Part shown: positions 10,143-60,950 of the stretch, in pieces | How positions within the stretch are numbered: position 1 is the first letter of the stretch | How the letters are laid out: every line of letters starts with the position of its first letter | Assembly: GCA_023267435.1 (NCBI GenBank) | Contig: JAHFNH010000004.1 | Coordinates: 1,236-65,235, forward strand | DNA: 64,000 nt | Reading direction: 5' to 3' | DNA from: Candidatus Nomurabacteria bacterium | GTDB taxonomy: Bacteria > Patescibacteriota > Minisyncoccia > Phycocordibacterales > UBA9973 | The notes under the pieces: generated by a model | The model's input: the letters and a program-made list of their open reading frames with translations, nothing else | Databases searched by the model: none | Told to the model about the DNA's origin: nothing | Program-made: the position numbers and the translations under genes

Positions 10143-11387
10143 ATGCAAACTCAAGAGTTAAAAAAATATAAAATTCCGGATAAGCCTGGAGTATATTTTT
10201 TCCTTAAAAATAAGGATATTTTTTATATTGGCAAAGCGACATCTTTAAAAGATAGAATAAAAAGTTATTTTAGTAATGATTTGTTTAATATGCGCGGACC
10301 TTTATTGGTGGATATGATAACCAAAGCGACAAGTATTAAATGGGTTGAAACTGATTCTGTTTTGGAAGCTCTGATTCTTGAGGCAAATTTTATCAAGAAA
10401 CATCAACCGATTTACAATACCAAAGAAAAGAGTGATAAGAGTTTCAATTATGTTTGTATTACAAGGGACACCTTACCTAAGGTAATTGTTGTTCGAGGAA
10501 AAGATTTAAATAAAAAACAAAAGAATTTTGGAGCCTTCGCCCTCGGAGGCATAAGGCAGGGAACCCACGACTCTGAAAATTCTTTTGTTTTTTACGATAA
10601 AGTTTTCGGCCCATATCCCAATGGTTCACAATTAAAAGAAGCACTAAAAATAGTGCGTCGCATTTTTCCATTTTTAGATGAAAAGAGTAAAAATAATTAT
10701 GAATTTTATAGACAATTAAAACTTGTTCCTGATGAGGGTAACTATAAGAAAAACATAAAAAATATAAAGTTATTTTTTGAAGGTAAAAAGAATAAAATCT
10801 TAAAAAATTTGGAAAAAGAAATGAGGGATTGTGCAAAAAGACATGAGTTTGAGAAAGCAGGGGAAATAAAAAAACAAATTTTTGCATTAAAACATATTCA
10901 AGATATTTCTTTAATTAAAGAAGATAAGATTACTAAAGAATTTTCTAAAGAAAATTTTCGCATTGAAGCTTATGACATAGCGCATATGAGCGGGGAAAAT
11001 ATGGTTGGCGTGATGGTGGTCATTGAAGATGGGGAAGTGAATAAAAAAGAATACCGGAAGTTTAAGATAAAAAATTACTCAAGTTCCAATGACGTTGGTG
11101 CATTAAAAGAAGTATTAGAGCGCAGGTTTGCTCATACAGAATGGATATACCCTAAACTAATGGTGATAGACGGAGGTAAGGCTCAGTTGAATATCGTTAA
11201 AAAATTCCAAAATGAAGTTGGTTTAGCAATACCAGTTGTGTCTGTGGTGAAAGACGAAAGACATAGGCCTAAAGCTATTTTAGGTGTTTCATCTGGTATC
11301 TCAGAGTCTTTGATACTTTTAGCTAATTCTGAAGCTCATAGATTTGCAATTTCGTATCATAGGAAATTACGTGGGAAGATTATATAA
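10143..11387 (+). CDS. uvrC: excinuclease ABC subunit C (UvrC), truncated form lacking the C-terminal HhH domain
   Basis: GIY-YIG motif (GVYFFLKNKDIFYIGKATSLKDRIKSYF). UvrBC-interaction motif (FEKAGEIKKQIFALKHIQ). RNase H-like endonuclease domain (RIEAYDIAHMSGENMVGVMVV...EAHRFAISYHRKLRGK). The ORF ends right after this domain. Confidence 0.8.
   Translation: MQTQELKKYKIPDKPGVYFFLKNKDIFYIGKATSLKDRIKSYFSNDLFNMRGPLLVDMITKATSIKWVETDSVLEALILEANFIKKHQPIYNTKEKSDKSFNYVCITRDTLPKVIVVRGKDLNKKQKNFGAFALGGIRQGTHDSENSFVFYDKVFGPYPNGSQLKEALKIVRRIFPFLDEKSKNNYEFYRQLKLVPDEGNYKKNIKNIKLFFEGKKNKILKNLEKEMRDCAKRHEFEKAGEIKKQIFALKHIQDISLIKEDKITKEFSKENFRIEAYDIAHMSGENMVGVMVVIEDGEVNKKEYRKFKIKNYSSSNDVGALKEVLERRFAHTEWIYPKLMVIDGGKAQLNIVKKFQNEVGLAIPVVSVVKDERHRPKAILGVSSGISESLILLANSEAHRFAISYHRKLRGKII
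10518..10587. repeat. palindromic element (AT-rich inverted arms caaaagaatttt, GC-rich core) inserted in frame in uvrC
   Basis: Arms caaaagaattttggag / ctctgaaaattcttttg are inverted complements. The core gccctcggaggc is itself a perfect palindrome. Related copies at 40132-40219 and 60207-60268. Confidence 0.75.
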
Positions 11388-12383: not shown

Positions 12384-12519
12384 CGTAGAATTGTTTTTAT
12401 CTGTGGCGGGTTATCGCACTCACATAGGCACATATGTTGGAGGTTAGCCATAACCCGCCTCAAATGAAAGCAATTTTTAAAAAAACTACATTAAAGTAAA
12501 ACTTAATGTAGTTTTTTTA
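12384..12519 (+). ncRNA. candidate small RNA (~135 nt) with a 10-bp long-range stem (ggcgggttat...ataacccgcc) and an intrinsic terminator
   Basis: The promoter-to-terminator unit has no ORF. The inverted repeat at 12406-12460 encloses a 35-nt loop. Terminator ctacattaaagtaaaacttaatgtag plus T-run at 12486-12519. Confidence 0.35.
12486..12519 (+). terminator. Rho-independent terminator
   Basis: ctacattaaagt-aaaa-cttaatgtag followed by a 7-T run. Confidence 0.7.
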
Positions 12520-12962: not shown

Positions 12963-15404
12963 ATGACATTATTCAGCAAAATTTTCGGGGATACGAGCTC
13001 AAAGTTCATAAAAGATGCTCAAAATATAGTGGAAAAAGTAAATGCCTGGGAGGCTGAAATTTCAAAGTTGCAGGATTTAGATTTTCCAAAAAAAACGCAA
13101 GAGTTTAAAGACAGACTCTTAAAAGATGAAACTTTAGATGATATTTTACCGGAAGCTTTTGCTTTAGTTCGTGAAGCAGGAAAGAGGTGTTTAAACGAGA
13201 GACATTATGATGTTCAGCTTGTTGGAGGCTTGGTTTTACATAAAGGAAAGATTTCTGAGATGAAAACAGGTGAAGGTAAAACTTTAGTTGCAACTTTGCC
13301 AGCATATCTAAATGCATTAACGGGTCTTGGTGTGCATATTGTTACAGTCAATGATTATCTTTCACGCAGAGATGCGGTTTTGATGGGTCAAGTATATAAT
13401 TTTCTCGGTCTTTCTGTTGGCGTTATAAATTCTCAAAATGTTTCTTATTTATATGACGCTAGTCATATTGAAGAAGACAAGGAACGTGACATTATTGGAG
13501 AATTTAAAATTTTTTATGATTTCTTAAAACCATGTTCACGACAGCAAGCTTATGCTGCAGACATTACCTACGGGACAAATCATGAATATGGCTTCGATTA
13601 TTTAAGAGATAATTTAGCGACATCAATAAATGATCTTGTTCAAAGAGAACACAATTTTGCAATCGTTGACGAAGTGGACTCTATTTTAATAGATGAAGCT
13701 CGTACTCCGCTTATTATTTCTTCTGCTTCCGGAGATTCTGAAGATTTTTATGTTAGATTTTATGAAATTGCCAAACAGCTCAAAAGAGATGTTGATTATA
13801 ATGTAGATGAAAAATTAAAGGCGATAACTTTGACTGACGAAGGTATAACTAAAGCAGAAAATTTGCTCGGTATTGAAAATATTTATACCGAAAAGGGTAT
13901 TAAATATGTGCATCATCTAGAGACTGCGGTAAAAGCTCAGGCTATTTTTGAACGTGATAAGGATTATGTTGTGAAAGAAGGTGAAGTGATTATAGTTGAC
14001 CCTTTTACTGGACGTCTTCAACCAGGCAGGCGCTGGTCTGAAGGAATTCACCAGGCTATTGAGGCGAAAGAAGGCGTAAAAATTGAAAAGGAAACACGTT
14101 CGTCTGGATCTATAACTTTCCAAAACTATTTCAGATTTTATAAAAAGTTATCAGGTATGACTGGTACAGCTTTGACTTCCGCGGAAGAATTTTTGAAAGT
14201 TTACGGTTTAGATGTAGTGGTGGTCCCAACTAATCGACCTGTTGTCCGTGCTGATCATTCAGATCTTATTTTCCAGACAGAAAAGGGAAAATTCCAAGCT
14301 ATTGCTAAAAAAGTAAAAGAGTTAAATAGTAAAGGTCAGCCAGTTCTTATTGGTACTATTTCCATTGAAAAGAATGAACTTTTGTCTGTTTACTTAAAAC
14401 AGGAAGGCGTGCCCCATACAATTTTAAATGCAAAAAATCACGAGAGAGAAGGTGAAATTATTGCTCAAGCTGGAAAAAGAGGCGCAGTGACTATTGCTAC
14501 AAACATGGCTGGTCGCGGAATCGACATAAAACTAGGTGGTAATCCAATGATTAAAGAAGAATGTGAAATTGTTAAAGATGCCGGTGGTCTTTTTGTTCTC
14601 GGTACTGAAAGACATGAAGCTCGAAGAATAGACAATCAGTTGAGAGGACGTGCAGGTCGTCAGGGAGATCCTGGTGAAACCCAGTTTTATGTTTCTCTTG
14701 AAGATGATTTGATGCGTATTTTCGGTTCTGAAAGAATAAAAACAATGATGGGACGTTTTGGTATTCCAGAAGAGCAGCCTATAGAGAATCGTTTTATCAA
14801 TAGAACCTTAGAAGGCGCACAAGCTAAAATCGAAGGTTTTCACTTTGATTCTCGTAAAAGTACTCTTGAATATGATGATGTTCTTAATCATCAAAGAGAA
14901 TCTATTTACGAGAGAAGGAGAAAAATGATTCACGCAGACAAGATGGAGATTGAGAATTTACTTCAAAAACTCACAGAAGAAAGAGAAGGTTCAGAAAAAA
15001 CAATAAAAGATAAAAGGGAAAAATTAGGAGACGAGGCTTTCCTTGAGACAGTACGAAGAATTGCATTGTATAGTACAGACGCGCTTTGGATGGAGCATTT
15101 GGAAGCGATGGATTATTTACGTTCATCTGTGAACTTAAGAGCTTACGGTCAGCGTGAACCTATTGTTGAGTATAAAAAAGAAGGGCTTAAAATGTTCAAG
15201 GAAATGGAAGAGGTCTTTGAAGATCAAGTTCTTTCATTAATTGAAACTATTACAGAGCCAGCTAAGCCTGAGAGTGCAGAACCTAAAGAAGTTCTAATCA
15301 CAAGCCATAATGAACCTTCTGAATTTTCTGATACTGAAGCAGGCAGAAATGATCCATGCCCTTGTGGAAGCGGTAAAAAATTCAAGAAGTGTCACGGGCA
15401 GTAA
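12963..15404 (+). CDS. secA: preprotein translocase ATPase SecA
   Basis: MTLFSKIFGD start. DEAD-like motor motifs. C-terminal zinc-binding CPCGSGKKFKKCHG. The track ORF begins at 12894, but the conserved SecA N-terminus starts at Met 12963. Confidence 0.92.
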   Translation: MTLFSKIFGDTSSKFIKDAQNIVEKVNAWEAEISKLQDLDFPKKTQEFKDRLLKDETLDDILPEAFALVREAGKRCLNERHYDVQLVGGLVLHKGKISEMKTGEGKTLVATLPAYLNALTGLGVHIVTVNDYLSRRDAVLMGQVYNFLGLSVGVINSQNVSYLYDASHIEEDKERDIIGEFKIFYDFLKPCSRQQAYAADITYGTNHEYGFDYLRDNLATSINDLVQREHNFAIVDEVDSILIDEARTPLIISSASGDSEDFYVRFYEIAKQLKRDVDYNVDEKLKAITLTDEGITKAENLLGIENIYTEKGIKYVHHLETAVKAQAIFERDKDYVVKEGEVIIVDPFTGRLQPGRRWSEGIHQAIEAKEGVKIEKETRSSGSITFQNYFRFYKKLSGMTGTALTSAEEFLKVYGLDVVVVPTNRPVVRADHSDLIFQTEKGKFQAIAKKVKELNSKGQPVLIGTISIEKNELLSVYLKQEGVPHTILNAKNHEREGEIIAQAGKRGAVTIATNMAGRGIDIKLGGNPMIKEECEIVKDAGGLFVLGTERHEARRIDNQLRGRAGRQGDPGETQFYVSLEDDLMRIFGSERIKTMMGRFGIPEEQPIENRFINRTLEGAQAKIEGFHFDSRKSTLEYDDVLNHQRESIYERRRKMIHADKMEIENLLQKLTEEREGSEKTIKDKREKLGDEAFLETVRRIALYSTDALWMEHLEAMDYLRSSVNLRAYGQREPIVEYKKEGLKMFKEMEEVFEDQVLSLIETITEPAKPESAEPKEVLITSHNEPSEFSDTEAGRNDPCPCGSGKKFKKCHGQ

Positions 15405-24625: not shown

Positions 24626-24979
24626 TTAAGAGGTATATTTTTTAATTTTCTCCAATGATTTATCTAAGTCTTTTTCTATTTCTGAATTCCAAAATCGGAT
24701 GACTTGGATATTCTTTGATTTTAAATATTCCGTGCGTGCTTTATCGTACTCTTTATTTTCTTTATGAATAGAGCCGTCTAATTCAATGGCGAGTTTTATT
24801 TTTGGTGCATAAAAATCAAGAATGAATTTCTCTATTGGGTGTTGCCTGCGAAATTTTACTCTGAGTTTATTGTTTCGTAGTTCTTTCCAAAGAATTTTTT
24901 CTGCTTCTGTTTCTTCTTTTCTGAGATAACGAGCTTTTGTTATTGATTGTAATTTTGGCATAAGATAATTATACCTCAC
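24626..24979 (-). CDS. DUF559 (Vsr/restriction-endonuclease-like) domain protein
   Basis: FRRQHPIEKFILDFYAPKIKLAIELDGSIHKENKEYDKARTEYLKSKNIQVIRFWNSEI matches the DUF559 endonuclease-domain pattern. Confidence 0.7.
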   Translation of the reverse strand: MRYNYLMPKLQSITKARYLRKEETEAEKILWKELRNNKLRVKFRRQHPIEKFILDFYAPKIKLAIELDGSIHKENKEYDKARTEYLKSKNIQVIRFWNSEIEKDLDKSLEKIKKYTS

Positions 24980-25064
24980 CCTGTCTGCTTCGCATCCACC
25001 CTCCCCATTTTTTTAAAAAAATGGGGAGGGGAAAGGGGTGGGGTGCATTTGTTTTCCTGTCTGG
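24975..25064. repeat. GC-rich palindromic repeat B (gcatccaccctcccca-T7A7-tggggagggg...ggggtggggtgc), flanked by cctgtctg direct repeats
   Basis: Near-perfect hairpin in an AT-rich context. Related to the in-frame palindrome in mnmA (60679-60724) and to repeat A. Confidence 0.65.
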
Positions 25065-35663: not shown

Positions 35664-35705
35664 TGTTTGTTTCTCCTTTTTATTTTAGGTTAGTTTATTA
35701 TTTTT

Positions 35706-35762
35706 AGTTATGTTCAGCTAAATGCTCAAAATGAATTGAGCTACTTGGCTGAACATAACTAT
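35706..35762. repeat. nested inverted repeat (agttatgttcagc ... gctgaacataact, enclosing ctcaa-aatgaa-ttgag)
   Basis: 13-bp perfect outer stem with an inner 5-bp hairpin. Intergenic, upstream of the SPFH gene. Confidence 0.6.
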
Positions 35763-36596: not shown

Positions 36597-36652
36597 ACAG
36601 AAAGTATATCATATATAAATACAAAAGTCAAGCCTTACGATAACCTATTTTG

Positions 36653-36734
36653 TGCCGGGAGGGAGACTCGAACTCCCAAGGGTTGCCCCACTAGTTCCTA
36701 AGACTAGCGCGTATACCAATTCCGCCATCCCGGC
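36653..36734 (-). tRNA. tRNA-Leu (anticodon TAG)
   Basis: Cloverleaf read manually: acceptor GCCGGGA/TCCCGGC, anticodon stem CTAGT/ACTAG, loop CTTAGGA, long variable arm, T-arm GGGAG-TTCGAGT-CTCCC. Confidence 0.8.
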
Positions 36735-36737
36735 AAT

Positions 36738-36916
36738 GTATTAAACTCTAACATTAAAACAGTGCTTACGCACTCCGTCTCGCACAAGGATATTGTGGTC
36801 ACAAGTATTTTTCTACTGAAAAATCTCGCGAAGCCTATCGTATTAATAGGCACCTGTAGACGGCCCGCTCTCGGCACCGTCGTGCCTGCGGCTCGCACAA
36901 AGCATCCCATGCTTTG
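36738..36916 (-). ncRNA. 179-nt highly structured spacer between tRNA-Lys and tRNA-Leu (candidate small RNA)
   Basis: On the minus strand: GCACAAAGCAT-GGG-ATGCTTTGTGC, GGCAC-GACG-GTGCC, CCTAT-TAATACG-ATAGG hairpins. GC-rich relative to surroundings. Confidence 0.3.
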
Positions 36917-36989
36917 TGCGCCCACCAGGGATCGAACCTGGGACATTCTCCTTAAGAGGGAGCTACTCTACCAGCTGAGTTATGGGCGC
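36917..36989 (-). tRNA. tRNA-Lys (anticodon CTT)
   Basis: Acceptor GCGCCCA/TGGGCGC, D-stem ACTC/GAGT, anticodon loop CTCTTAA, T-arm CCAGG-TTCGATC-CCTGG. 73 nt. Confidence 0.8.
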
Positions 36990-37036
36990 ATGAAATATTC
37001 AGTTATCGGCGTATAAAAACAAAACTTAAACACCGG

Positions 37037-37118
37037 TGCCCGGAGTGGGGGTCGAACCCACATCCCTTGCGAGACACGATTTTAAGTCGTGCGCGTATAC
37101 CAATTCCGCCATCCGGGC
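37037..37118 (-). tRNA. tRNA-Leu (anticodon TAA)
   Basis: Acceptor GCCCGGA/TCCGGGC, anticodon stem CACGA/TCGTG, loop CTTAAAA, long variable arm. Confidence 0.8.
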
Positions 37119-37166
37119 AATTTTTAAATTATAATTCAAAACTATTCTTTTCTCAAATTACAATTG

Positions 37167-37238
37167 AGGCCTGGGGCGGAATTGAACCGCCGCATAGAGA
37201 TTTTGCAGATCTCTGCCTTACCACTTGGCTACCAGGCC
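37167..37238 (-). tRNA. tRNA-Cys (anticodon GCA)
   Basis: Acceptor GGCCTGG/CCAGGCC, anticodon stem GAGAT/ATCTC, loop CTGCAAA, T-arm GGCGG-TTCAATT-CCGCC. Confidence 0.8.
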
Positions 37239-37593: not shown

Positions 37594-39099
37594 TTATTTT
37601 TGTGTGATTGAGAACGATTCAAGAATATCACCGGATACTATTTCGATCTTTGATTCGATCATAGTACCGAATTCAGATCCTTCTTCGACTTTGCTTGTTT
37701 TCTGTTTACTCTTTTCAAGATTTACTATTTTACCTTTGCCTATTTCGAATTCTCGGCGAATTATTTTTACAGTTTCACCCAGAGAGATGCTTCCTTCGGT
37801 GACTTTTCCGCCGACAACTTGTCTTTCTTTTGTACGACTGAACGCTTTGATTATTTTTGCTCGTCCGGTCGTTTCAACTGTTTCCACTCTTGGGCGTCTT
37901 TTTTCCATTTCTTCTGCAAGCCACTCGGTCATTTTATAAATAATATCAAAGAAAAGAACCGGTATGTTTTGTTTTAACGCTAGGTCATTTGCACCTTTGT
38001 CAGCTTTGACATTGAAACCGATTACGATAATGTCTGAACTTCCTTGAGATGATTTTATATCAGATTCATTGATAGGCCCGACACCTTTTTGAATTATTTT
38101 GAATTCTGCACCATCACTTTTGATTTTACCTATTTCTTTTTCAATCGCTTCAATGGATCCCATGACGTCTGCACGTAAAATTATCGGAATGATTTTTTTA
38201 TCGCTTACTTCTCTTTTTTCAGTTTTTGTTATTTTTCCAGTTAGTATGTCTTTTGCATATTCTTCCGCATCACTTTTCTTTTCAAAAGATTTAAACATTG
38301 CTCCAACTTTGGGAACTTTATTAAAACCAACGAGTCGGACAGGGGAGGAAAATGTAGCATCGTTAACCATCTTACCTAAAAAGTTTTCCATGATGCGGGT
38401 AGAACACAAAGCATCTTCCACTGCCACAGTCATTCCTTTTTTGAGTTTTCCATCCTTGATTACTAAAGTTGCTTGAACTCCACGTTTTGAATCCAAATTT
38501 GCTTCTATCACATAACCACTTGCTCCTTCTTCAGTGTTTGCTGTGAAATTTTCCATCTCAGCAAGTAAAAGAATAAGAGTTAAAAGATTATCTACACCAG
38601 TGCCTACTTTGGCAGATATTTCTGCGACAGGTGTTTTACCTCCATAACCCTCAATATATATTTCATTTTCTGCGAGCTCCATTTTTGTTTTTTCAATATT
38701 GGCTGCTGGTCTGTCGATTTTATTAATAGCAACGATAAATGGAATCTTGCTTTCCAGAATTGTTTTGTAAGCTTCCACTGTTTGTGGTTTTACTCCGTCT
38801 TCAGCTGAGACGACTAAGATAGCAATATCAGCAGCTTCTGCTCCGCGTTCGCGCATTTTGGAAAAAGCTTCGTGACCGGGAGTATCTAGGAATGTTATTT
38901 TTTTATCTTTGCCGTGCTCATCTTTATGAACAACTTCATAAGCGGAAATATGCTGGGTAATTCCTCCAGCTTCACGGTCTACTATATTTGTCTTTCGAAT
39001 ATAATCCAACAATGTAGATTTACCGTGGTCGATATGACCCATAACCACCACGATTGGCGGACGCTCTGTTATATTTGTTTTTTCTTTTGAATCTTTCAT
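37594..39099 (-). CDS. infB: translation initiation factor IF-2 (short form lacking the N-terminal domains)
   Basis: G-domain GHIDHGKSTLLD, DTPGHEAF, NKID. C-terminal beta-barrel domains. 501 aa. Confidence 0.9.
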   Translation of the reverse strand: MKDSKEKTNITERPPIVVVMGHIDHGKSTLLDYIRKTNIVDREAGGITQHISAYEVVHKDEHGKDKKITFLDTPGHEAFSKMRERGAEAADIAILVVSAEDGVKPQTVEAYKTILESKIPFIVAINKIDRPAANIEKTKMELAENEIYIEGYGGKTPVAEISAKVGTGVDNLLTLILLLAEMENFTANTEEGASGYVIEANLDSKRGVQATLVIKDGKLKKGMTVAVEDALCSTRIMENFLGKMVNDATFSSPVRLVGFNKVPKVGAMFKSFEKKSDAEEYAKDILTGKITKTEKREVSDKKIIPIILRADVMGSIEAIEKEIGKIKSDGAEFKIIQKGVGPINESDIKSSQGSSDIIVIGFNVKADKGANDLALKQNIPVLFFDIIYKMTEWLAEEMEKRRPRVETVETTGRAKIIKAFSRTKERQVVGGKVTEGSISLGETVKIIRREFEIGKGKIVNLEKSKQKTSKVEEGSEFGTMIESKIEIVSGDILESFSITQK

Positions 39100-39146
39100 T
39101 TGATTTATTTTATAGCCTAGCTACGAATTTACTAATTCGAATCACG

Positions 39147-39620
39147 CTAGGCGTGAACTTCTGCTCTTTTAAGAGTTTCTTTTTCTTCCGCCGTTAATTC
39201 ATATTCTGATTTTCCTTTTTTAACAGGCTTGGCGAATACACTCATGCGTTCACGGGAATATAAACTTGAAATAACCACACCATCGCCTTCTTCGTTTAAT
39301 AATCCAATTGCAAAACTTTGATTACTGCCTTGGTCAGGGAATGGATTGAAGCGCACAGTCTCAAGTCCGCGAATACTTTTCTTGAGTTTTGAATTTATTA
39401 AGACTAACTCTTTCTCGTGTTCTTCTTTTGATTTTTTTAACTTAGCAATGTCACTCTCTAGAGCAATAATAGTATCTTCCAAATCTTTAGCCTTTTTGCC
39501 GATAAAAAATCTTTTCAAGCGTTTTTCGGTTTTAATAACCCAAATAACGCCGACAATGATGGCGATCCCAGTTAAAACAAAAAAAGCCAAGAAAATAATA
39601 TTGTCGAGCTTTATATTCAT
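39147..39620 (-). CDS. membrane-anchored protein, DUF4446-like
   Basis: N-terminal TM, coiled coil, RFNPFPDQGSNQSFAIGLLNEEGDGVVISSL motif. Confidence 0.3.
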   Translation of the reverse strand: MNIKLDNIIFLAFFVLTGIAIIVGVIWVIKTEKRLKRFFIGKKAKDLEDTIIALESDIAKLKKSKEEHEKELVLINSKLKKSIRGLETVRFNPFPDQGSNQSFAIGLLNEEGDGVVISSLYSRERMSVFAKPVKKGKSEYELTAEEKETLKRAEVHA

Positions 39621-39644
39621 GCCTTTTCAATATATACTATTTTT

Positions 39645-40868
39645 ATGGTTAAATCAAACAAAATATATATGGATTACGCCAGTGGCGCTTGTTCAGATCC
39701 AGCCAACCCGGGGGCTATCCATGAATTTGGAGTAAAAGCAAAGAAAAGATTGAATGAAGCAAGAGAAGAAATTGCTGGAATTTTAGGCGCGCATTCTGAT
39801 GAAATAATTTTTACCTCTGGAGCAACTGAAAGTAACAATTTGGTGATTTTAGGTGTTTTGAAAAAGTATCTTCAAAATTTTTCCCATTTGCCACACATTG
39901 TAACTACCAACATAGAACACGCATCCGTATTGGAAGTTTGTAAATATTTAGAGAAAACAAAACAAGCAGAGATAACTTTTGTGCCAGTTGAATCAAACGG
40001 AATAGTTTCTCCAGAAAAAATAAAAAAAGCGTTGAAAAAAAATACTATTTTAGTTTCTGTGATGTATGCGAATAATGAAATTGGCACAATCCAACCAATA
40101 CGAGAAATTGCAAAAGAAATTAGGCACTTTAGGAAAACGAAAAATTCAGCAGAATTTTCTCGGGTCCTCGGAAGGGGGTCAGCCAGACCACTCGAAAATT
40201 CTCTGAATTTCTCGTTTCCCATTTTTCATACTGATGCTACTCAGGCGATAAATTATTTGCCGATCAATGTCGAGAAGCTCGGTGTTGATTTGTTATCCTT
40301 CAATGGATTAAAAATTTACGGACCGAGCGGTGTTGGAGTTTTGTATGAAAAAAGGAATACGCCCATCAGTAGTATTATGTTTGGTGGTGATCAAGAAAGA
40401 GGATTGAGACCCGGAACAGAAAATATTAATGGAATTATTGCTTTGGCTAAAGCTTTGAAAATTACTGAACAAATAAAAGATAAAGAAGTAAAACGCTTAA
40501 CCAAGCTTCGAGATTATTTTACTAAAAAATTATTAAAATTTAATTTTGTTGTTAATGGTAGTTTGGAAAATAGATTACCCAATAATATAAATATCACTAT
40601 TCCAAAAACCCCGAGTGATCTTTTAGTAATAGAACTTTCAGCAAAGGGAATTATGGCTTCTGTAAAAAGCGCTTGTAAGTCTGGCGATGAAAAATCTTCT
40701 CATGTCATACAAGCTATTCGTGAAGCGAAAACAGGGAAGTCTTTGTTGGATAAAGAAGTAGACGGATCTATTAGATTTTCTCTGGGCAGACAGACGACTA
40801 AGGCTGATATTGATTACACAGTTAAAGCTTTGTCTCAAATTTTGACTAAACTAAAAAAATGGTACTAA
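39645..40868 (+). CDS. cysteine desulfurase (IscS/NifS, class V aminotransferase) with an internal palindromic-element insertion
   Basis: TSGATESNN, HASVLE, FHTDATQA, SFNGLKIYGP (PLP-Lys) motifs. An extra ~30-aa segment (FRKTKNSAEFSRVLGRGSARPLENSLNFSFP) sits between the conserved EIRH and FHTDATQ. Confidence 0.8.
   Translation: MVKSNKIYMDYASGACSDPANPGAIHEFGVKAKKRLNEAREEIAGILGAHSDEIIFTSGATESNNLVILGVLKKYLQNFSHLPHIVTTNIEHASVLEVCKYLEKTKQAEITFVPVESNGIVSPEKIKKALKKNTILVSVMYANNEIGTIQPIREIAKEIRHFRKTKNSAEFSRVLGRGSARPLENSLNFSFPIFHTDATQAINYLPINVEKLGVDLLSFNGLKIYGPSGVGVLYEKRNTPISSIMFGGDQERGLRPGTENINGIIALAKALKITEQIKDKEVKRLTKLRDYFTKKLLKFNFVVNGSLENRLPNNINITIPKTPSDLLVIELSAKGIMASVKSACKSGDEKSSHVIQAIREAKTGKSLLDKEVDGSIRFSLGRQTTKADIDYTVKALSQILTKLKKWY
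40132..40219. repeat. palindromic element (arms ggaaaacgaaaaattcagcagaattttctcg / cgaaaattctctgaatttctcgtttcc, GC-rich core) in frame inside the cysteine desulfurase gene
   Basis: 27 of 31 arm positions are complementary. The core cctcggaag...ccactcgaaaattct resembles the uvrC copy. Confidence 0.75.
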
Positions 40869-40890
40869 AGTACTGCGATTTCTACAATCC

Positions 40891-40919
40891 TTGAGGGATT
40901 AAGAAATCGGGAGTATAAT
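40891..40919 (+). promoter_or_regulatory. promoter TTGAGG-17-TATAAT, 7 nt upstream of the ATG (leaderless mRNA likely)
   Basis: The -10 ends at 40919; the ATG is at 40927. Confidence 0.45.
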
Positions 40920-40926
40920 TAAAACT

Positions 40927-41736
40927 ATGGACATTCAAGATTTAAATAAAACACAACTAATACTATTAGCTTTACTTTTAAGTTTCGTTACTTCGATCGC
41001 GACAGGTATAACGACTGTGACTTTAATGCAACAAGCTCCAGCATCCGTGACTGTGCCTATTAATAGAATTATCAGACAAACAGTTGAAAAGATTGTGCCA
41101 GCAGAAATAGGAAAGCCAGCAGTGCAGACAATAGTCATAAAAGAAGAAGATTTAGTGGTGGATGCAATTGCAAAAAATCAATCCGCTATTTTTTCAATAA
41201 TCAAAGAGACGACCGATGGGTCTGGTCTTGTTACTGAAGTTTCTGCCGGTAGAGGATTTGTTATTTCAACTGACGGTATGATTGTAGCCGATGCGGCATT
41301 GGTGCCGGATAAGGAGGTCTATTACGTAAGCAATGATTCAGGAAAATTTAAAGCAGATTTTGTTTCTGCTAAAGATGGATTTTCATTTTTAAAAATAGGC
41401 GCACCGTTGGATGAAAAAAATAAAGTGTCGTTTGCAGTGCCAACTTTCGGTGATATTAAAAATATGAAAATAGGACAAAAAGTGATAACACTAGGGAGTT
41501 CGATATCTTCATTTATTTATGACGGATCGAAAGATCTTAAATTGAATGTTACAAAATCAAATGCAGGAGGCATGATACTCGACCTTGATGGAGATGTTCT
41601 TGGCATTGCTTTGTCTGGTGAGACTGCATCCTTTGCTTCAATTTCTACTATTACTGATGCGTTAAAAACAGCAACGATAGTAACACCAGTATCAACAGGC
41701 GCAGCGGCAGCGATAGAGGCTCCAAAAGTACAGTAG
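40927..41736 (+). CDS. membrane-anchored trypsin/HtrA-like domain protein with a degenerate catalytic triad (pseudo-protease)
   Basis: GRGFVISTDGMIVADAALV aligns with the GSGFII.dGyIlTNaHVv of HtrA but lacks the His. NAGGMILDLDGDVLGIAL sits in the place of GNSGGPL, with the Ser replaced. Confidence 0.4.
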   Translation: MDIQDLNKTQLILLALLLSFVTSIATGITTVTLMQQAPASVTVPINRIIRQTVEKIVPAEIGKPAVQTIVIKEEDLVVDAIAKNQSAIFSIIKETTDGSGLVTEVSAGRGFVISTDGMIVADAALVPDKEVYYVSNDSGKFKADFVSAKDGFSFLKIGAPLDEKNKVSFAVPTFGDIKNMKIGQKVITLGSSISSFIYDGSKDLKLNVTKSNAGGMILDLDGDVLGIALSGETASFASISTITDALKTATIVTPVSTGAAAAIEAPKVQ

Positions 41737-41737
41737 C

Positions 41738-41765
41738 TTGACATTTAGTCTGTTTATTTTATTAT
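41738..41765 (+). promoter_or_regulatory. sigma70-type promoter TTGACA-16-TATTAT for clpB
   Basis: Consensus -35. Overlaps the stop codon of the upstream gene. Confidence 0.5.
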
Positions 41766-41782
41766 CTAGTATCTAAAAACAT

Positions 41783-44479
41783 ATGCCACCATTAACCAGA
41801 TTTACAACTAAAGCTAAAGATGCGATAAAAAAAGCTCACGAGCTGGCTATTGAACGCGGGCAAAATCACGTTTCTTCAATGCATTTACTAGCGGCACTCT
41901 TATTACAAGAAGAAAGCATGGTGAATTCTATTTTAGATAAAATGGAAATAGATACTATGCTTTTGACTGATTCCGTATTAGAAGCGATTGAATCACCTGA
42001 AGCACAGACAACGATGTCTGCTTCGTATCAGATTTATCTCAATCCTGACTTGGCTCAGTCTATCGAGCATTCAGTGAAAATGGCGGAATCTTTAAAAGAT
42101 GAATTTGTTTCAACTGAGCATCTTTTTATTGCTATGCTCGATGTGCCCAGCGAGGCGCGCGAGACTTTAGCGAGATTTAGAATTCATAAAGATTTAGTGA
42201 TGAAGATTTTGGAAGAACTTCGCAGTCAAAATATTACCGACACGACAGAGACAAAAAAGTTTCGTTTACTTTCGAAATATACTCGCAATTTAACCAAACT
42301 TGCGAAAGAAGATAAGCTTGATCCAGTCATTGGGCGTGATAATGAAATTATGCGCATAATGCAGATTTTATCTCGACGAACAAAAAACAATCCTATCTTG
42401 ATAGGCGAAGCGGGGACTGGTAAGACTGCTGTCGTAGAAGGACTAGCGCAGAGAATTGCTAAGAATGACGTTTCTGAATCTTTGAAAGAAAAAGAACTTG
42501 TTTCTCTTGACTTAGGTTCACTCATTGCCGGTACAAAATATCGCGGAGAATTTGAAGAAAGATTGAAGGGTATTATGAAAGAAATAGAAAGGGCTGATGG
42601 AAAAATAATTCTTTTTATTGATGAGATACACACCATCGTCGGTGCTGGAGGTGCAGAAGGAACGATGGATGCTTCAAATATGTTAAAGCCCGCACTGGCT
42701 CGTGGAGAATTGCGTGCTATTGGAGCGACGACCTTAAAAGAATATCAGAAACATATTGAAAAAGATCCAGCCTTGGCTCGTCGTTTTCAGCCTGTTTATA
42801 TAGATGAACCTTCGTTGGAAGATACGATTGCTATTTTGCGCGGACTGAAAGAAAAATATGAACTTTTTCATGGTGTGCGCATTACTGATGACGCGATACT
42901 TTCAGCTGTTAATTTGAGCACTCGATATATTACAAATAGATTCTTGCCGGATAAAGCTGTCGATTTGATCGATGAAGCTTCTTCTTCATTGAAAATAGCT
43001 CTTGAAAATAAGCCTCCAGTTTTAGAAGAAGCTCATAGAAAAATAATGCGTTTGGAAATTGAAAAAGAAGCATTAAAAAAGGAAAGTGAAGAAAATAAAG
43101 ATGCTAAAATTAGAGTGAAAGATATCGATAAAGAAATAGGAAATTTGCGTGAGAAAACAAAAGAGCTTGAATTAAAATGGCAGAATGAAAAAAATATTGT
43201 TATTGAAATACGTTCTATTAAAAAAGAACTTGAAACTTTACGTTTAGAAGCGGAGAGTGCTGAAATGCGCGCGGATCTTTCTCGTGCGGCAGAAATACGT
43301 TATGGCAAAATTCCTAGTTTGAAAAAAGATCTTGAAACAAAACTTACTCGTTTAAAAAAATTACAGAAGTCTCGCAGAATATTAAAAGAAGAAATTAACG
43401 CTGAGGATATTGCAGAAGTTGTCGCACGTTGGACGGGTATACCACTTGCGAAAATGCTAGAAGAAGAACGCGCGAAGTTGGAAAAAATGGAAGAAGAATT
43501 GCGAAAGCGTGTCATTGGACAAGATGAAGCTATCAAGCGCGTGGCAGATGTTATACGCCGTTCACGAGCTGGAATTTCTGATCCAAATCGTCCGATCGGT
43601 TCCTTCATTTTCTTGGGTCCGACGGGTGTCGGGAAAACAGAGCTTACCAAAGCTTTGGCACAATTTATGTTTAATGATGATAAGGCTCTTATCCGAGTGG
43701 ATATGTCAGAATATATGGAACGTCATTCTATTTCAAAACTTATTGGTTCTCCACCAGGATATGTCGGTTATGATGAATCTGGTCAATTAACAGAATCAGT
43801 CAGACATCGTCCTTATGCGGTGATACTTTTTGATGAAGTTGAAAAAGCGCATCCGGAAGTTTTCAATATGCTTTTGCAAGTTCTTGATGAAGGCAGATTG
43901 ACCGATGGAAAGGGTAGAGTGGTTAATTTCAAAAATACAATTATCATTCTTACATCAAACATCGGTTCTCAATTTATCGATAAGATGGAGTCTATTGGAT
44001 TTTCCAATAATTCAGATAAGCAAAATTACAGCAATATGAAAGAAAAAGTAATGGAAACATTAAAGGACCATTTTCGTCCGGAGTTTTTGAATCGTCTGGA
44101 TGAAACTATTGTCTTCGATGTTTTGCCTGAAGAAGCAATCAGAGAAATTGTGAACTTAAGAATTAAAGTTGTGAAAGAGCGCTTAGCTTCTAAAGATATC
44201 GGATTGGAGATTTCAAATGAAGCTCTCGATTATCTGGCAAAGGAAGGATACAATCCGCATTACGGTGCAAGACCATTAAATCGTCTGATTCAAAATAAAA
44301 TTCTAAATCCTGTAGCCTCATATATTCTTTCTAGTGGAGCAAAGAAAGGTGATGTTGTTCATGTTTCGGTAAAAGCGAGAGAGCTTTTGATTGAAACTAA
44401 AAAAGGGAAAAGCTCGTCCCGCCCTGGCGGGGTAAAAAGTTCTGTGCGAGTTCGGGCTAGTTCTGGAGCTAGGTCATAA
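41783..44479 (+). CDS. clpB: ATP-dependent chaperone ClpB with a ~25-aa basic/Ser-rich C-terminal extension
   Basis: N-domain, two AAA+ modules ([24 protein letters not shown]), long middle coiled coil. The C-terminal [26 protein letters not shown] is encoded by a GC-rich stretch. Confidence 0.92.
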
Positions 44480-59801: not shown

Positions 59802-60950
59802 TTGATAAAGCAAAAGAAAACTATATTTGTCGGTATGTCGGGTGGGGTGGATTCTTCTGTTTCCGCTGCTATTTTAAAAGACCAAGGATATGATGTCGTT
59901 GGGGTTTTTATTCGTACCTGGCATCCTGATTTTTTGGTTTGTAATGAAGAAGACGAACGCCGCGACGCTATGCGCGTCGCGGCGCATTTAGATATTCCAT
60001 TTCTGACTTTCGATCTTGCAGATGTATATAAAAAAGAAGTGGCTGATTATATGATTTCTGAATATAAGGCAGGACGCACTCCAAACCCAGATGTGATGTG
60101 TAATAAAGAAGTGAAGTTTGGCGCTTTTCTAAAAAAGGCACTAGAGATGGGTGCGGATTATGTGGCGACAGGGCATTATGCGCAGGTTTCATTAAATAAA
60201 AATTTAAAAGATTTTGGAGCCTTCGCCCTTGGAGAATTAAAGAGAGGGGGCTCTAAAAATCTTTCAAATTTTTCTTTAATTAAAGGCAAAGACCCTTCCA
60301 AAGATCAATGTTATTTTTTGTGGACATTAAAACAAGAACAACTAAAACATATTTTATTTCCAGTGGGACATTTAAATAAAACAGCTGTGAGAAAACTGGC
60401 GAAGAAATATAAATTACCAGTAGCAGAAAAGAAAGATAGTCAGGGTATATGTTTCTTGGGTGATATTGATTTGAAAGATTTTTTGAAACACTATATTAAA
60501 GAAAAAAGAGGGAAAATTTTGCTAGAAAATGGTGAAGAAATTGGATTCCATGACGGTGCGGTTTTCCATACTCTCGGTGAACGTCATGGTTTTACAATTA
60601 CCAAAAAAGGTCCGAATGATAGTGCGTATTATATTGTCGGAAAAGACGTAAAGAAAAATATTTTAGTTGTTTCGCAGAACCCCTCCCAACCCTCCCCTTA
60701 TCAAGGGGAGGGCGAGGGTGGGGTAATTAAAAAATTAGATAATGTGAATTTTATTTCAGGTATTCCAAATGAAAATAAAAATTATACAGCGCAGATAAGA
60801 TATCACGGAGAATTTTTAGATTGTAAAATTAAAATTACTGGAAAAACAACCGTTGAAGTAATTTTTGAAAAACCAGTATTAGTAGCGGGAGGTCAATCGG
60901 TAGTCTTTTATGATAAAGATATTTGTCTTGGCGGGGGAGTAATTATTTAG
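59802..60950 (+). CDS. mnmA: tRNA-specific 2-thiouridylase MnmA, carrying two in-frame palindromic-element insertions
   Basis: PP-loop VGMSGGVDSSV. CNKEVKFGAFL…ATGHYA, DPSKDQCYFL motifs. Extra segments FGAFALGELKRGGSKNLSNF and PSQPSPYQGEGEGG. Confidence 0.85.
   Translation: MIKQKKTIFVGMSGGVDSSVSAAILKDQGYDVVGVFIRTWHPDFLVCNEEDERRDAMRVAAHLDIPFLTFDLADVYKKEVADYMISEYKAGRTPNPDVMCNKEVKFGAFLKKALEMGADYVATGHYAQVSLNKNLKDFGAFALGELKRGGSKNLSNFSLIKGKDPSKDQCYFLWTLKQEQLKHILFPVGHLNKTAVRKLAKKYKLPVAEKKDSQGICFLGDIDLKDFLKHYIKEKRGKILLENGEEIGFHDGAVFHTLGERHGFTITKKGPNDSAYYIVGKDVKKNILVVSQNPSQPSPYQGEGEGGVIKKLDNVNFISGIPNENKNYTAQIRYHGEFLDCKIKITGKTTVEVIFEKPVLVAGGQSVVFYDKDICLGGGVII
60207..60268. repeat. palindromic element (arms aaaagattttggagcc / ggctctaaaaatcttt) in frame inside mnmA
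   Basis: Shares ttttggagccttcgccct with the uvrC copy. Inverted AT-rich arms around a GC-rich core. Confidence 0.75.
60679..60724. repeat. GC-rich palindrome (cccaaccctcccc-ttatcaa-ggggagggcgagggtgggg) in frame inside mnmA
   Basis: Same arm motif (accctcccc / ggggaggg..gggtgggg) as repeat B at 24975-25064. Sharp GC spike within an AT-rich gene. Confidence 0.7.

Follow-up and report, generated by a model that had tools for sequence, protein, structure and literature searches.

A probable dispersed hairpin-forming repeat lying in frame within a cysteine desulfurase gene of Patescibacteria

Rickettsia palindromic elements (RPEs; Ogata et al. 2000, summarised in PMC10969869) are palindromic repeats of ∼100–150 bp located in intergenic DNA as well as in frame within housekeeping genes, and all RPE insertions in the literature that we found are in Rickettsia. 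[quoted passage not shown] Palindromes may moreover be reshaped where they stand: in the accessible text of PMC8604942 and PMC8794818, template switching between the arms of an inverted repeat is described as homogenising the arms, inverting spacers and creating or extending perfect stems. Here we analyze a stretch of 64,000 nucleotides (the window) from Candidatus Nomurabacteria bacterium (contig JAHFNH010000004.1), in which an imperfect palindrome lies in frame within a gene encoding a cysteine desulfurase. We consider it likely, with good though not full confidence, that this insert represents one copy of a hairpin-forming, non-autonomous DNA repeat that is dispersed in Paceibacteria-type Patescibacteria and RPE-like in its behavior. 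The finding is real, and it is more general than was supposed in the earlier note, made from the sequence of the window, that drew attention to the palindrome.

The palindrome in the cysteine desulfurase gene

The host gene (39645–40868, forward strand) encodes a 407-residue cysteine desulfurase of the NifS/IscS type (class V aminotransferase), as established from its open reading frame (ORF), Pfam and PDB matches, invariant columns and Foldseek comparison. Pfam family PF00266 (Aminotran_5) matches the protein in two stretches with a break at residue 161 (E 5.8e-61). The solved cysteine desulfurases in the PDB match it with E down to 6e-74, the alignment placing 32 residues of the query against 6 in solved IscS/NifS (query 160 to chain 175, query 193 to chain 182). 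The pyridoxal phosphate lysine (K223), the catalytic cysteine (C344), H92/D197/Q200 and the HTDATQ motif are invariant across the homolog alignment. The insert is positioned between the helix IAKEIRH and the strand FHTDATQ, in frame, and the ORF runs through the palindrome without a stop codon. The earlier note's central claim, of an in-frame hairpin splitting EIRH from FHTDATQ, was thus borne out by the ORF and by a strong inverted-repeat signal.

The whole palindrome occupies 40132–40220 (forward strand). An inverted-repeat search returned 18-nt arms with 89% complementarity at these positions, and a global alignment of 40132–40162 with the reverse complement of 40190–40220 matched 26 of the 31 positions and opened a single gap of 1 nt; the long arms reported previously are present, with a count slightly below the 27 of 31 that had been given. 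Folded as RNA, the 101-nt palindrome region reaches −35 kcal/mol (z = −4.1), a stability attained by not one of 200 dinucleotide shuffles.

At the apex lies a GC-rich conserved core of 27 nt (GGTCCTCGGAAGGGGGTCAGCCAGACC; 40163–40189, forward strand), the short form of the sequence that defines the family, which matches the family hidden Markov model (HMM) with E 4e-11. Its GGTC/GACC and GG/CC pairings flank an asymmetric internal loop (CTC vs A). The core is followed outward by semi-conserved inner arms including internal loops, both delimited by the family alignment: TTTTCTCG on the left (40155–40162; consensus TTTTCTCA) and ACTCGAAAA on the right (40190–40198; consensus ATTCAAAAA). The outer arms (40132–40154 and 40199–40220), on the other hand, are unique to the window copy. 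The left one overlaps the codons of R163-K-T-K-N-S-A-E and resembles the R-K-x-K motif native to insert-free homologs of the candidate phyla radiation (CPR), and the last 8 nt of the right one (TCGTTTCC, S-F-P) correspond to the native [FY]-P motif that precedes FHTDATQ. The outermost 8–9 bp of the palindrome (GGAAAACGA / TCGTTTCC, R-K-T ... S-F-P) thus encode residues native in insert-free homologs. Because these outermost bases are native codons, we place the net insertion at ∼63 nt rather than 88 nt, i.e. 21 codons (A169–F189, AEFSRVLGRGSARPLENSLNF; ∼40149–40211, forward strand, with boundaries uncertain by 1–2 codons). The distance from IRH to HTD is 33 amino acids in the window protein vs 11–13 in insert-free CPR homologs. 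Of the ∼30-residue, 88-nt insert described at the outset, the palindrome itself stands and the net gain shrinks to about 21 codons. Nor does the 88-nt palindrome qualify as the mobile unit, the conserved part being a core of 27–58 nt with ∼8–9 nt of inner arm to either side, flanked by outer arms that are copy-specific and partly native. A tryptic peptide spanning the insert would be, for example, GSARPLENSLNFSFPIFHTDATQAINYLPINVEK.

On the opposite strand an ORF of 116 amino acids (39872..40222) is open across the element for no other reason than that stop codons are lacking in the GC-rich core and in the arms, one of them A-rich and the other T-rich; of the six frames in which the family consensus can be read, five are likewise open. 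This antisense frame, probably not a gene, does encode the peptide ...RENSAEFF... that the earlier note had described as nearly the same as the sense peptide, the resemblance being confined to the arms.

In the AlphaFold model of the desulfurase (42-sequence alignment; mean pLDDT, the per-residue confidence, 79; predicted TM-score 0.80) the fold is predicted to be intact, with Foldseek TM-scores of 0.76–0.84 to IscS, Nfs1 and NifS. Residues 171–190 are modelled as a helical extension followed by coil, between helix 152–166 and strand 193–197, with a pLDDT of 56–57 compared with 92–95 in both flanks. The earlier note had asked whether the insert forms a surface loop, and in the model it is a low-confidence excursion that leads from a helix to a strand of the IscS fold. 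Judging from the conserved frame and the model, the most economical reading is that the insert is translated as a tolerated surface excursion.

Dispersed copies, turnover at one loop and formation of the stem

The window-type core belongs to a family of which more than 20 copies were found, in both orientations and in several reading frames (L-numbers below denote the genome, metagenome and viral loci compared, P-numbers the homolog proteins, and positions given with no L-number refer to the window). Family members have the layout TTTTCTCA-GGTCCTCGG-(variable mini-hairpin)-RGCCAGACC-ATTCAAAAA and a unit length of 45–75 nt, and their alignment contains no GTAG or CGTC head. The exact 27-nt core recurs three times in L130 and once in L171, and 15 or more further loci have longer variants of it. 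A search with the window element (nhmmer) recovered copies in the same gene elsewhere, both at the same site (site A, the stretch between IAKEIRH and HTDATQ; L003 in the same and L009 in the opposite orientation) and at a second site near residues 75–78 (site B; L006 and L007). In all, in-frame desulfurase copies were located at site A in the window, L003, L009, L156 and L283 and at site B in L006 and L007. Beyond this gene, three independent contigs (L182, L171, L121) carry in-frame copies, in both orientations, in the zinc-finger loop of LigA, and single in-frame copies occur in a gene for a TruB-like pseudouridine synthase (L126) and in that for a 734-residue protein (L143). Intergenic copies are present in L095, L119, L149, L165, L175, L186, L130, L016 and L020; L130 alone has three within 5.6 kb around ftsK, and those of L016 and L020, found by the family HMM, occupy orthologous positions.

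Metagenomes were scanned for the pattern GGTCCTCGG(N8-38)RGCCAGACC, with subsequent filtering by the family HMM. This yielded 120 stretches, mostly chance matches in GC-rich contigs, of which ∼15, in AT-rich contigs, remained as real after filtering. None of the 82 pattern matches in viral contigs was a convincing copy. One of the viral matches (L230, 8755–8790) proved to be the 3′ half of a tRNA-Pro gene (AGGTCCTCGGTTCAAATCCGAGTAGCCAGACCA), and the long form of the core has AGGTCCTCGGTTC and GCCAGACCA in common with this tRNA-Pro. Among 187 tRNAs predicted by ARAGORN in the loci, one contains the shared 9-mer and none has both motifs, and the sequence resemblance is at best a weak hint of a tRNA origin of the core.

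Downstream of ftsK, one orthologous intergenic site is occupied by a family element in L130 (1330–1372) vs an unrelated, ordinary GC-stem/T-run terminator in L095 (4121–4189). Both loci derive from 0.2-μm fractions of Hainich groundwater. Intergenic copies may act as terminators or replace them. We also considered that the core inserts into the loop of a pre-existing hairpin or terminator; this was unsupported, the L095 ortholog of the second L130 copy being an unrelated ordinary terminator (one pair compared).

To follow the fate of site A we compared 121 sequences, namely the best 120 homologs (58–69% identical over their full length, 352 to 478 amino acids) and the window protein. The site is empty in 47 of them (EIRHFNKINxKKIFFHTDATQ), holds a short extra segment in 23, a member of the window-type family in another 23 and other inserts in 28. 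As many as 51 of the 121 have 20–34 extra residues, which fall into several apparently unrelated peptide families. An insert common to all homologs of the clade and devoid of an inverted repeat in its DNA, the result that would have spoken against the earlier note, is thus not what the orthologs display: the insert is absent from many of them and the inverted-repeat signal is strong. By six-frame translation, the peptides FSRVLG..., FFQVLGSP..., FLRSSVL..ARPFKN, VFEWSGW.RDPENRGPEKT and FLNGLAG..RGPEKN turned out to be one DNA element read in different frames and orientations. Comparison of insert peptides with the element DNA (tblastn) assigned the 23 site-A inserts to the window-type family (10 in plus and 13 in minus orientation), with three more at site B. 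Among the translated copies one frame has stop codons (minus orientation, L009), and this frame is not represented among the inserts.

Hairpins at site A are not confined to this family. In the first set of loci compared as DNA, nine site-A inserts have at least 16 amino acids, and eight of them form strong hairpins (z −4.7 to −11.5), the sole exception being that of L010 (17 amino acids, z +0.9). Shorter segments gave z of about 0 and −1.2 (two sites of 11 amino acids) and from +1.3 to −2.0 (12–14 amino acids). Many CPR lineages have at this position a native motif of 12–13 residues, R-K-x-K...[FY]-P-[FLY]-F, and in non-CPR outgroups the loop is shorter still. Apart from site A, the desulfurase has length-variable hot spots near residues 19, 75–78 (site B), 298 and 360–370; these correspond to helix ends and loops of the model, except for residue 19, which lies in a low-confidence N-terminal segment.

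Scored in five states (empty, short, family +, family −, other), site A agreed between nearest neighbours with a concordance of 0.35, compared with 0.25±0.05 for shuffled labels, and proteins that are 84–88% identical over conserved columns can differ in state. That the state hardly tracks the gene phylogeny points to a tolerant loop at which inserts are rapidly gained, lost, replaced and inverted. Neither a single ancient insertion nor a selected peptide fits this pattern.

What the copies have in common is the core with an inner stem of ∼8–12 nt, the outer stems of 15–25 bp being specific to each copy: complementarity between arms (local alignment score) is 43 within a copy vs 13±4.5 between copies. 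In the orthologous inserts of L006 and L007, all three differences in the left arm are compensated in the right arm. In L003 and L283, whose proteins are 86% identical over conserved columns, the core of one is inverted relative to that of the other and their arms are unrelated. The native VFPVF codons (GTTTTTCCTGTTTT) make up the right arm in the former, with their reverse complement as the left arm; in the latter, the hairpin does not include these codons, and its right arm repeats the native left flank (KKIKKDS) as reverse complement. At site A, the net insertion approximates core plus inner arms plus one outer arm, i.e. 66 = 44 + 22 nt in the window and 72 = 51 + 21 nt in L156. Because copy-specific matched arms, inverted flank codons and a flipped core all fit documented template switching, we infer that this process shapes the stem, and its role in forming the outer stem appears reasonably supported. 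DNA-polymerase template switching within the hairpin would create and maintain the outer stem by copying one flank in inverted form; it would keep both arms identical and could flip the core.

Two further kinds of inverted repeat were observed in the desulfurase gene. Perfect short hairpins composed of arms only, with no GC core, lie in the same desulfurase loop in L004 (5071–5118), L012 (4075–4114) and L006 (10538–10579), and are possibly remnants of an element left by central deletion. In L022 (4910–4982) a perfect 23-bp inverted repeat has in its loop the native FHTDA codons (TTTTCATACTGATGCA), and so encloses conserved active-site coding sequence.

Readings of the insert

Under the reading that we prefer, a dispersed element would land in intergenic DNA and in genes alike, the surviving genic copies being those that are in frame, free of stops and placed in tolerant surface loops. 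The presumably mobile part would be the GC-rich core of 27–58 nt, with its bulged 'neck' (GGTC-CTC-GG ... CC-A-GACC), together with a short A/T inner stem, and it is this part that would have spread to new sites. On translation the window copy would add ∼21 residues to a cysteine desulfurase that still functions, and its effect on the host is most likely neutral.

Several observations weigh against this reading. No second copy of the window-type core was found in the 64-kb window (blastn-short, nhmmer), and no transposase or other mobilising gene was seen beside the copies inspected (e.g. among the ORFs of L130). The flanks of 20 copies gave no consistent direct repeat that could represent a target-site duplication, the ends of the element not being sharply defined. 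Joining the flanks of nine intergenic copies revealed no empty allele among the compared loci; these include no closely related filled/empty genome pair, so that no insertion could be traced nucleotide by nucleotide. The LigA copies have no outer arm that is obviously native, and copying of a flank is therefore not evident in every case. In addition, five of the six core frames are free of stops merely through GC-richness, which makes the lack of stops weak evidence, and it is from conservation of the frame alone that we infer translation of the insert.

Could the element instead act at the level of RNA, through excision and religation of the mRNA (resembling 'SOS splicing'), through ribosome bypass, or as a structure for regulation, RNase III or termination? 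Stems so long and so nearly perfect would give double-stranded RNA, and intergenic copies are present where terminators are expected, the second copy of L130 occupying the position of an ordinary terminator of the syntenic L095. Excision of an inverted-repeat transposon from mRNA exists in animals, according to the accessible text of PMC12779559. On the other hand, site A was located in 28 loci by a search that took no account of frame, and it is in frame in all 28, of which ∼10 carry inserts of at least 30 nt, with a chance expectation of about (1/3)^10. Were the insert precisely removed from the mRNA, nothing would require its length to be divisible by three. Each of the 120 homolog proteins reads through. 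Rfam 15 gave no match at gathering score in the window and nothing at the copies of L130, L165 and L095, and at permissive E-values it returned nothing beyond generic hairpin-like matches to miRNA models (14–18 bits, compared with gathering scores of 70–100). To our knowledge, no system that excises inverted repeats from mRNA exists in bacteria. Altogether, we regard an RNA-level role as unlikely.

Even less room is left for a selected, lineage-specific protein loop, such as a partner-binding surface, in which the palindromic nature of the DNA would be incidental. IscS-type enzymes have several interaction partners in other organisms, and the insert is in frame at a surface position where ∼60% of the homologs have extra residues, all of which is compatible with such a function. 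Against it, the same DNA at the same site is read in both orientations and in at least four frames, giving unrelated peptides; other homologs have unrelated hairpins or nothing at this position, with a state that hardly follows the phylogeny; the pLDDT over the insert is low; and the same DNA occurs in intergenic spacers as well. We therefore hold this explanation to be very improbable.

A purely local origin, in which the hairpin was made on the spot by template switching or quasi-palindrome formation with no mobile element involved, has the stem in its favor. The outer arms are copy-specific and in some cases repeat flanking native codons in inverted form, perfect stems are a known product of template switching (accessible text of PMC8794818), and the arm-only hairpins of L004 and L012 show that core-less palindromes occur at the very same site. 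What it fails to account for is the apex. The identical 27-nt core is found in unrelated contexts (three intergenic sites in L130, and LigA in L171), with recognisable variants at 20 or more sites in at least five genes, and local copying cannot yield the same GC-rich sequence at unrelated loci. The shared core largely refutes this alternative, to which we assign hardly any likelihood.

Finally, although library artefacts can generate palindromes, a chimeric or fold-back read deserves practically no credence, because a protein from another public assembly (P0001) is identical to the window desulfurase save for a shorter N-terminus, and dozens of independent metagenomes and metagenome-assembled genomes contain related copies at this site.

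Other hairpins, and comparison with described systems

The window is AT-rich (35% G+C) and its closest protein matches come from Patescibacteria annotated as Minisyncoccia, Paceibacterota or Nomurabacteria. The desulfurase gene lies in a block with the order infB – DUF4446 – cysteine desulfurase – an unknown 269-residue protein – clpB (37594–44479), which is kept in related Patescibacteria contigs (e.g. L283), and a cluster of four tRNA genes (36652–37238) is situated just upstream of this block.

Further palindromic elements are found elsewhere in the window. One with a different core (TTTTGGAGCCTTCGCCCTCGGAG...) lies in frame in uvrC (10498–10607, forward strand), and a second copy of this uvrC type lies in frame in mnmA (60187–60284, forward strand). 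The two find each other by nhmmer with E of 6e-6 to 1e-4, both contain TTTTGGAGCCTTCGCCCTYGGAG, and differences between their arms are compensated (ACA/TGT vs TTT/AAA). The earlier note had assigned them to one family with the desulfurase element, and this part of it did not hold, as neither pairwise nhmmer nor the 16-copy family HMM detected any homology. The resemblance is one of design only, an A/T stem that encloses a GC-rich core and lies, in frame, inside a housekeeping gene. A third family forms a nested, GC-rich double hairpin (CCTCACCC..CACCCTCCCC / GGGGAGGG..GGGTGAGG), with copies at 24972–25045 (intergenic), at 60678–60725 (in frame in mnmA, encoding NPSQPSPYQGEGEGGV) and at site A of the L007 desulfurase (10548–10602, encoding THLTRFQHPLLGKERVGVRF). 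Two more long intergenic hairpins of unrelated sequence occur at 12389–12475 and 35705–35761 (z −8.4 and −9.8, respectively). In secA (14806–14915), a conserved native segment of the protein (SRKSTLEYDDVLNHQRESIYER) is encoded by DNA that folds as a hairpin (z −5.1), which may reflect chance or else homogenisation of arms on native codons.

A census of hairpins (stems of at least 16 bp with no more than 2 mismatches, loops of 3–70 nt) counted 111 in 908 kb of CPR loci vs 2 in shuffled sequence, 35 of the 111 lying well inside long ORFs. The corresponding densities, 12.2 per 100 kb in CPR loci and 2.7 in GC-rich non-CPR contigs, are order-of-magnitude values only, since every CPR locus in this biased sample contains the hot-spot gene and the ORF test is heuristic.

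We put forward tentatively, as a possibility that we rate as rather less probable than not, that Patescibacteria carry several families of a new kind of hairpin parasite, each with a mobile conserved apex and a stem rebuilt at every site from host flanking codons by template switching. No transposase would take part, and insertion, flipping, growth and deletion would be fast enough to rewrite the same surface loops of essential enzymes again and again. The bulged GC-rich 'neck' may then be what a structure-specific enzyme recognises on folded single-stranded DNA. If this is true, hairpin parasites would be a major, so far unnoticed source of protein-length variation across CPR.

A large part of bacterial diversity belongs to the Patescibacteria (CPR), and nearly all that is known of them comes from metagenomes. 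Should the elements be as common as the loci suggest, many 'lineage-specific insertions' of CPR housekeeping proteins would be selfish DNA and not adaptations, with effects on annotation, alignment, trimming of phylogenomic markers and structure prediction across the whole group. The combination of a conserved apex, a host-derived stem and frequent flips also makes template switching, as a driver of palindrome growth, directly testable with population metagenomes.

Among described systems, RPEs bear the closest likeness. Their hosts too have reduced genomes, and they too are palindromic, reside in intergenic DNA and in frame in unrelated housekeeping genes, are tolerated through falling in surface regions and have no identified transposase. 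The window-type family is likewise hairpin-forming and lies in frame, with the ORF preserved, in unrelated genes (the desulfurase at two sites, LigA, the TruB-like enzyme and the 734-residue protein). The host of RPEs, however, belongs to the Rickettsiales, whereas the closest homologs here are from Patescibacteria, and the two are likened by description, not by sequence. Here, moreover, the conserved part is a central GC-rich core flanked by copy-specific, partly native outer arms, and the loop of one gene has been struck repeatedly, in both orientations and several frames. With Rickettsia as the first, the family would be a second and independent case of a reduced genome whose coding sequences have been colonised by palindromic repeats, and it bears on the long-standing question of whether palindromic elements seed new protein segments.

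MITEs are similar in being small dispersed repeats that form hairpins, are non-autonomous and can become joined in frame to ORFs of the host. They differ in being defined by terminal inverted repeats that are conserved, by direct duplication of the target site and by a parent insertion sequence. In the family described here the termini vary, as the between-copy arm scores attest; the 20 copies have no consistent direct repeat, with ends not sharp enough to exclude short ones; and no parent insertion sequence or autonomous transposase was seen among the neighbouring ORFs of the copies inspected (L130). REP and BIME sequences with their RAYT transposases (PMC3733652) are also abundant, short, GC-rich hairpins recognised as structures, but they are extragenic, 20–40 nt long and GTAG/CGTC-tagged, unlike the elements of 45–75 nt, many of them intragenic and none with such a head, that we describe.

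The hairpins attributed to template switching in PMC8794818 and PMC8604942 resemble ours, as far as their accessible text goes, in perfect copy-specific arms, compensatory changes that need no selection, extension of the stem into the flank and inversion of the spacer. Switching alone gives no shared core at unrelated loci, and in the present case it appears to be layered on a dispersed element. The coding palindromes of Nematomorpha mitochondria (PMC6649704) are comparable in that long near-perfect inverted repeats lie in functional genes, with arm codons that encode protein. Those palindromes occupy conserved coding regions of a mitochondrial genome, and the accessible part of that source describes no dispersed conserved core, whereas the repeats studied here mostly constitute extra loop sequence. 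Readings as an intein, an intron or a CRISPR were dismissed on size and sequence.

The GC clusters and 'byps' of yeast mitochondria are GC-rich palindromic mobile modules in a very AT-rich genome and are sometimes located within coding regions. Byps, which the ribosome skips, are free to be out of frame, and the strict frame conservation observed here argues, by comparison, for translation. A full-text search, with most subscription journals outside its coverage, found no literature linking palindromic elements, RPEs or MITEs with Patescibacteria or CPR, and the family is apparently undescribed in this group. Overall, it should not be filed as a member of the RPEs, MITEs or REPs: what is new is an RPE-like colonisation of coding sequences in another phylum, a design that combines a conserved apex with a host-derived stem, and a very fast turnover at recurrent loops.

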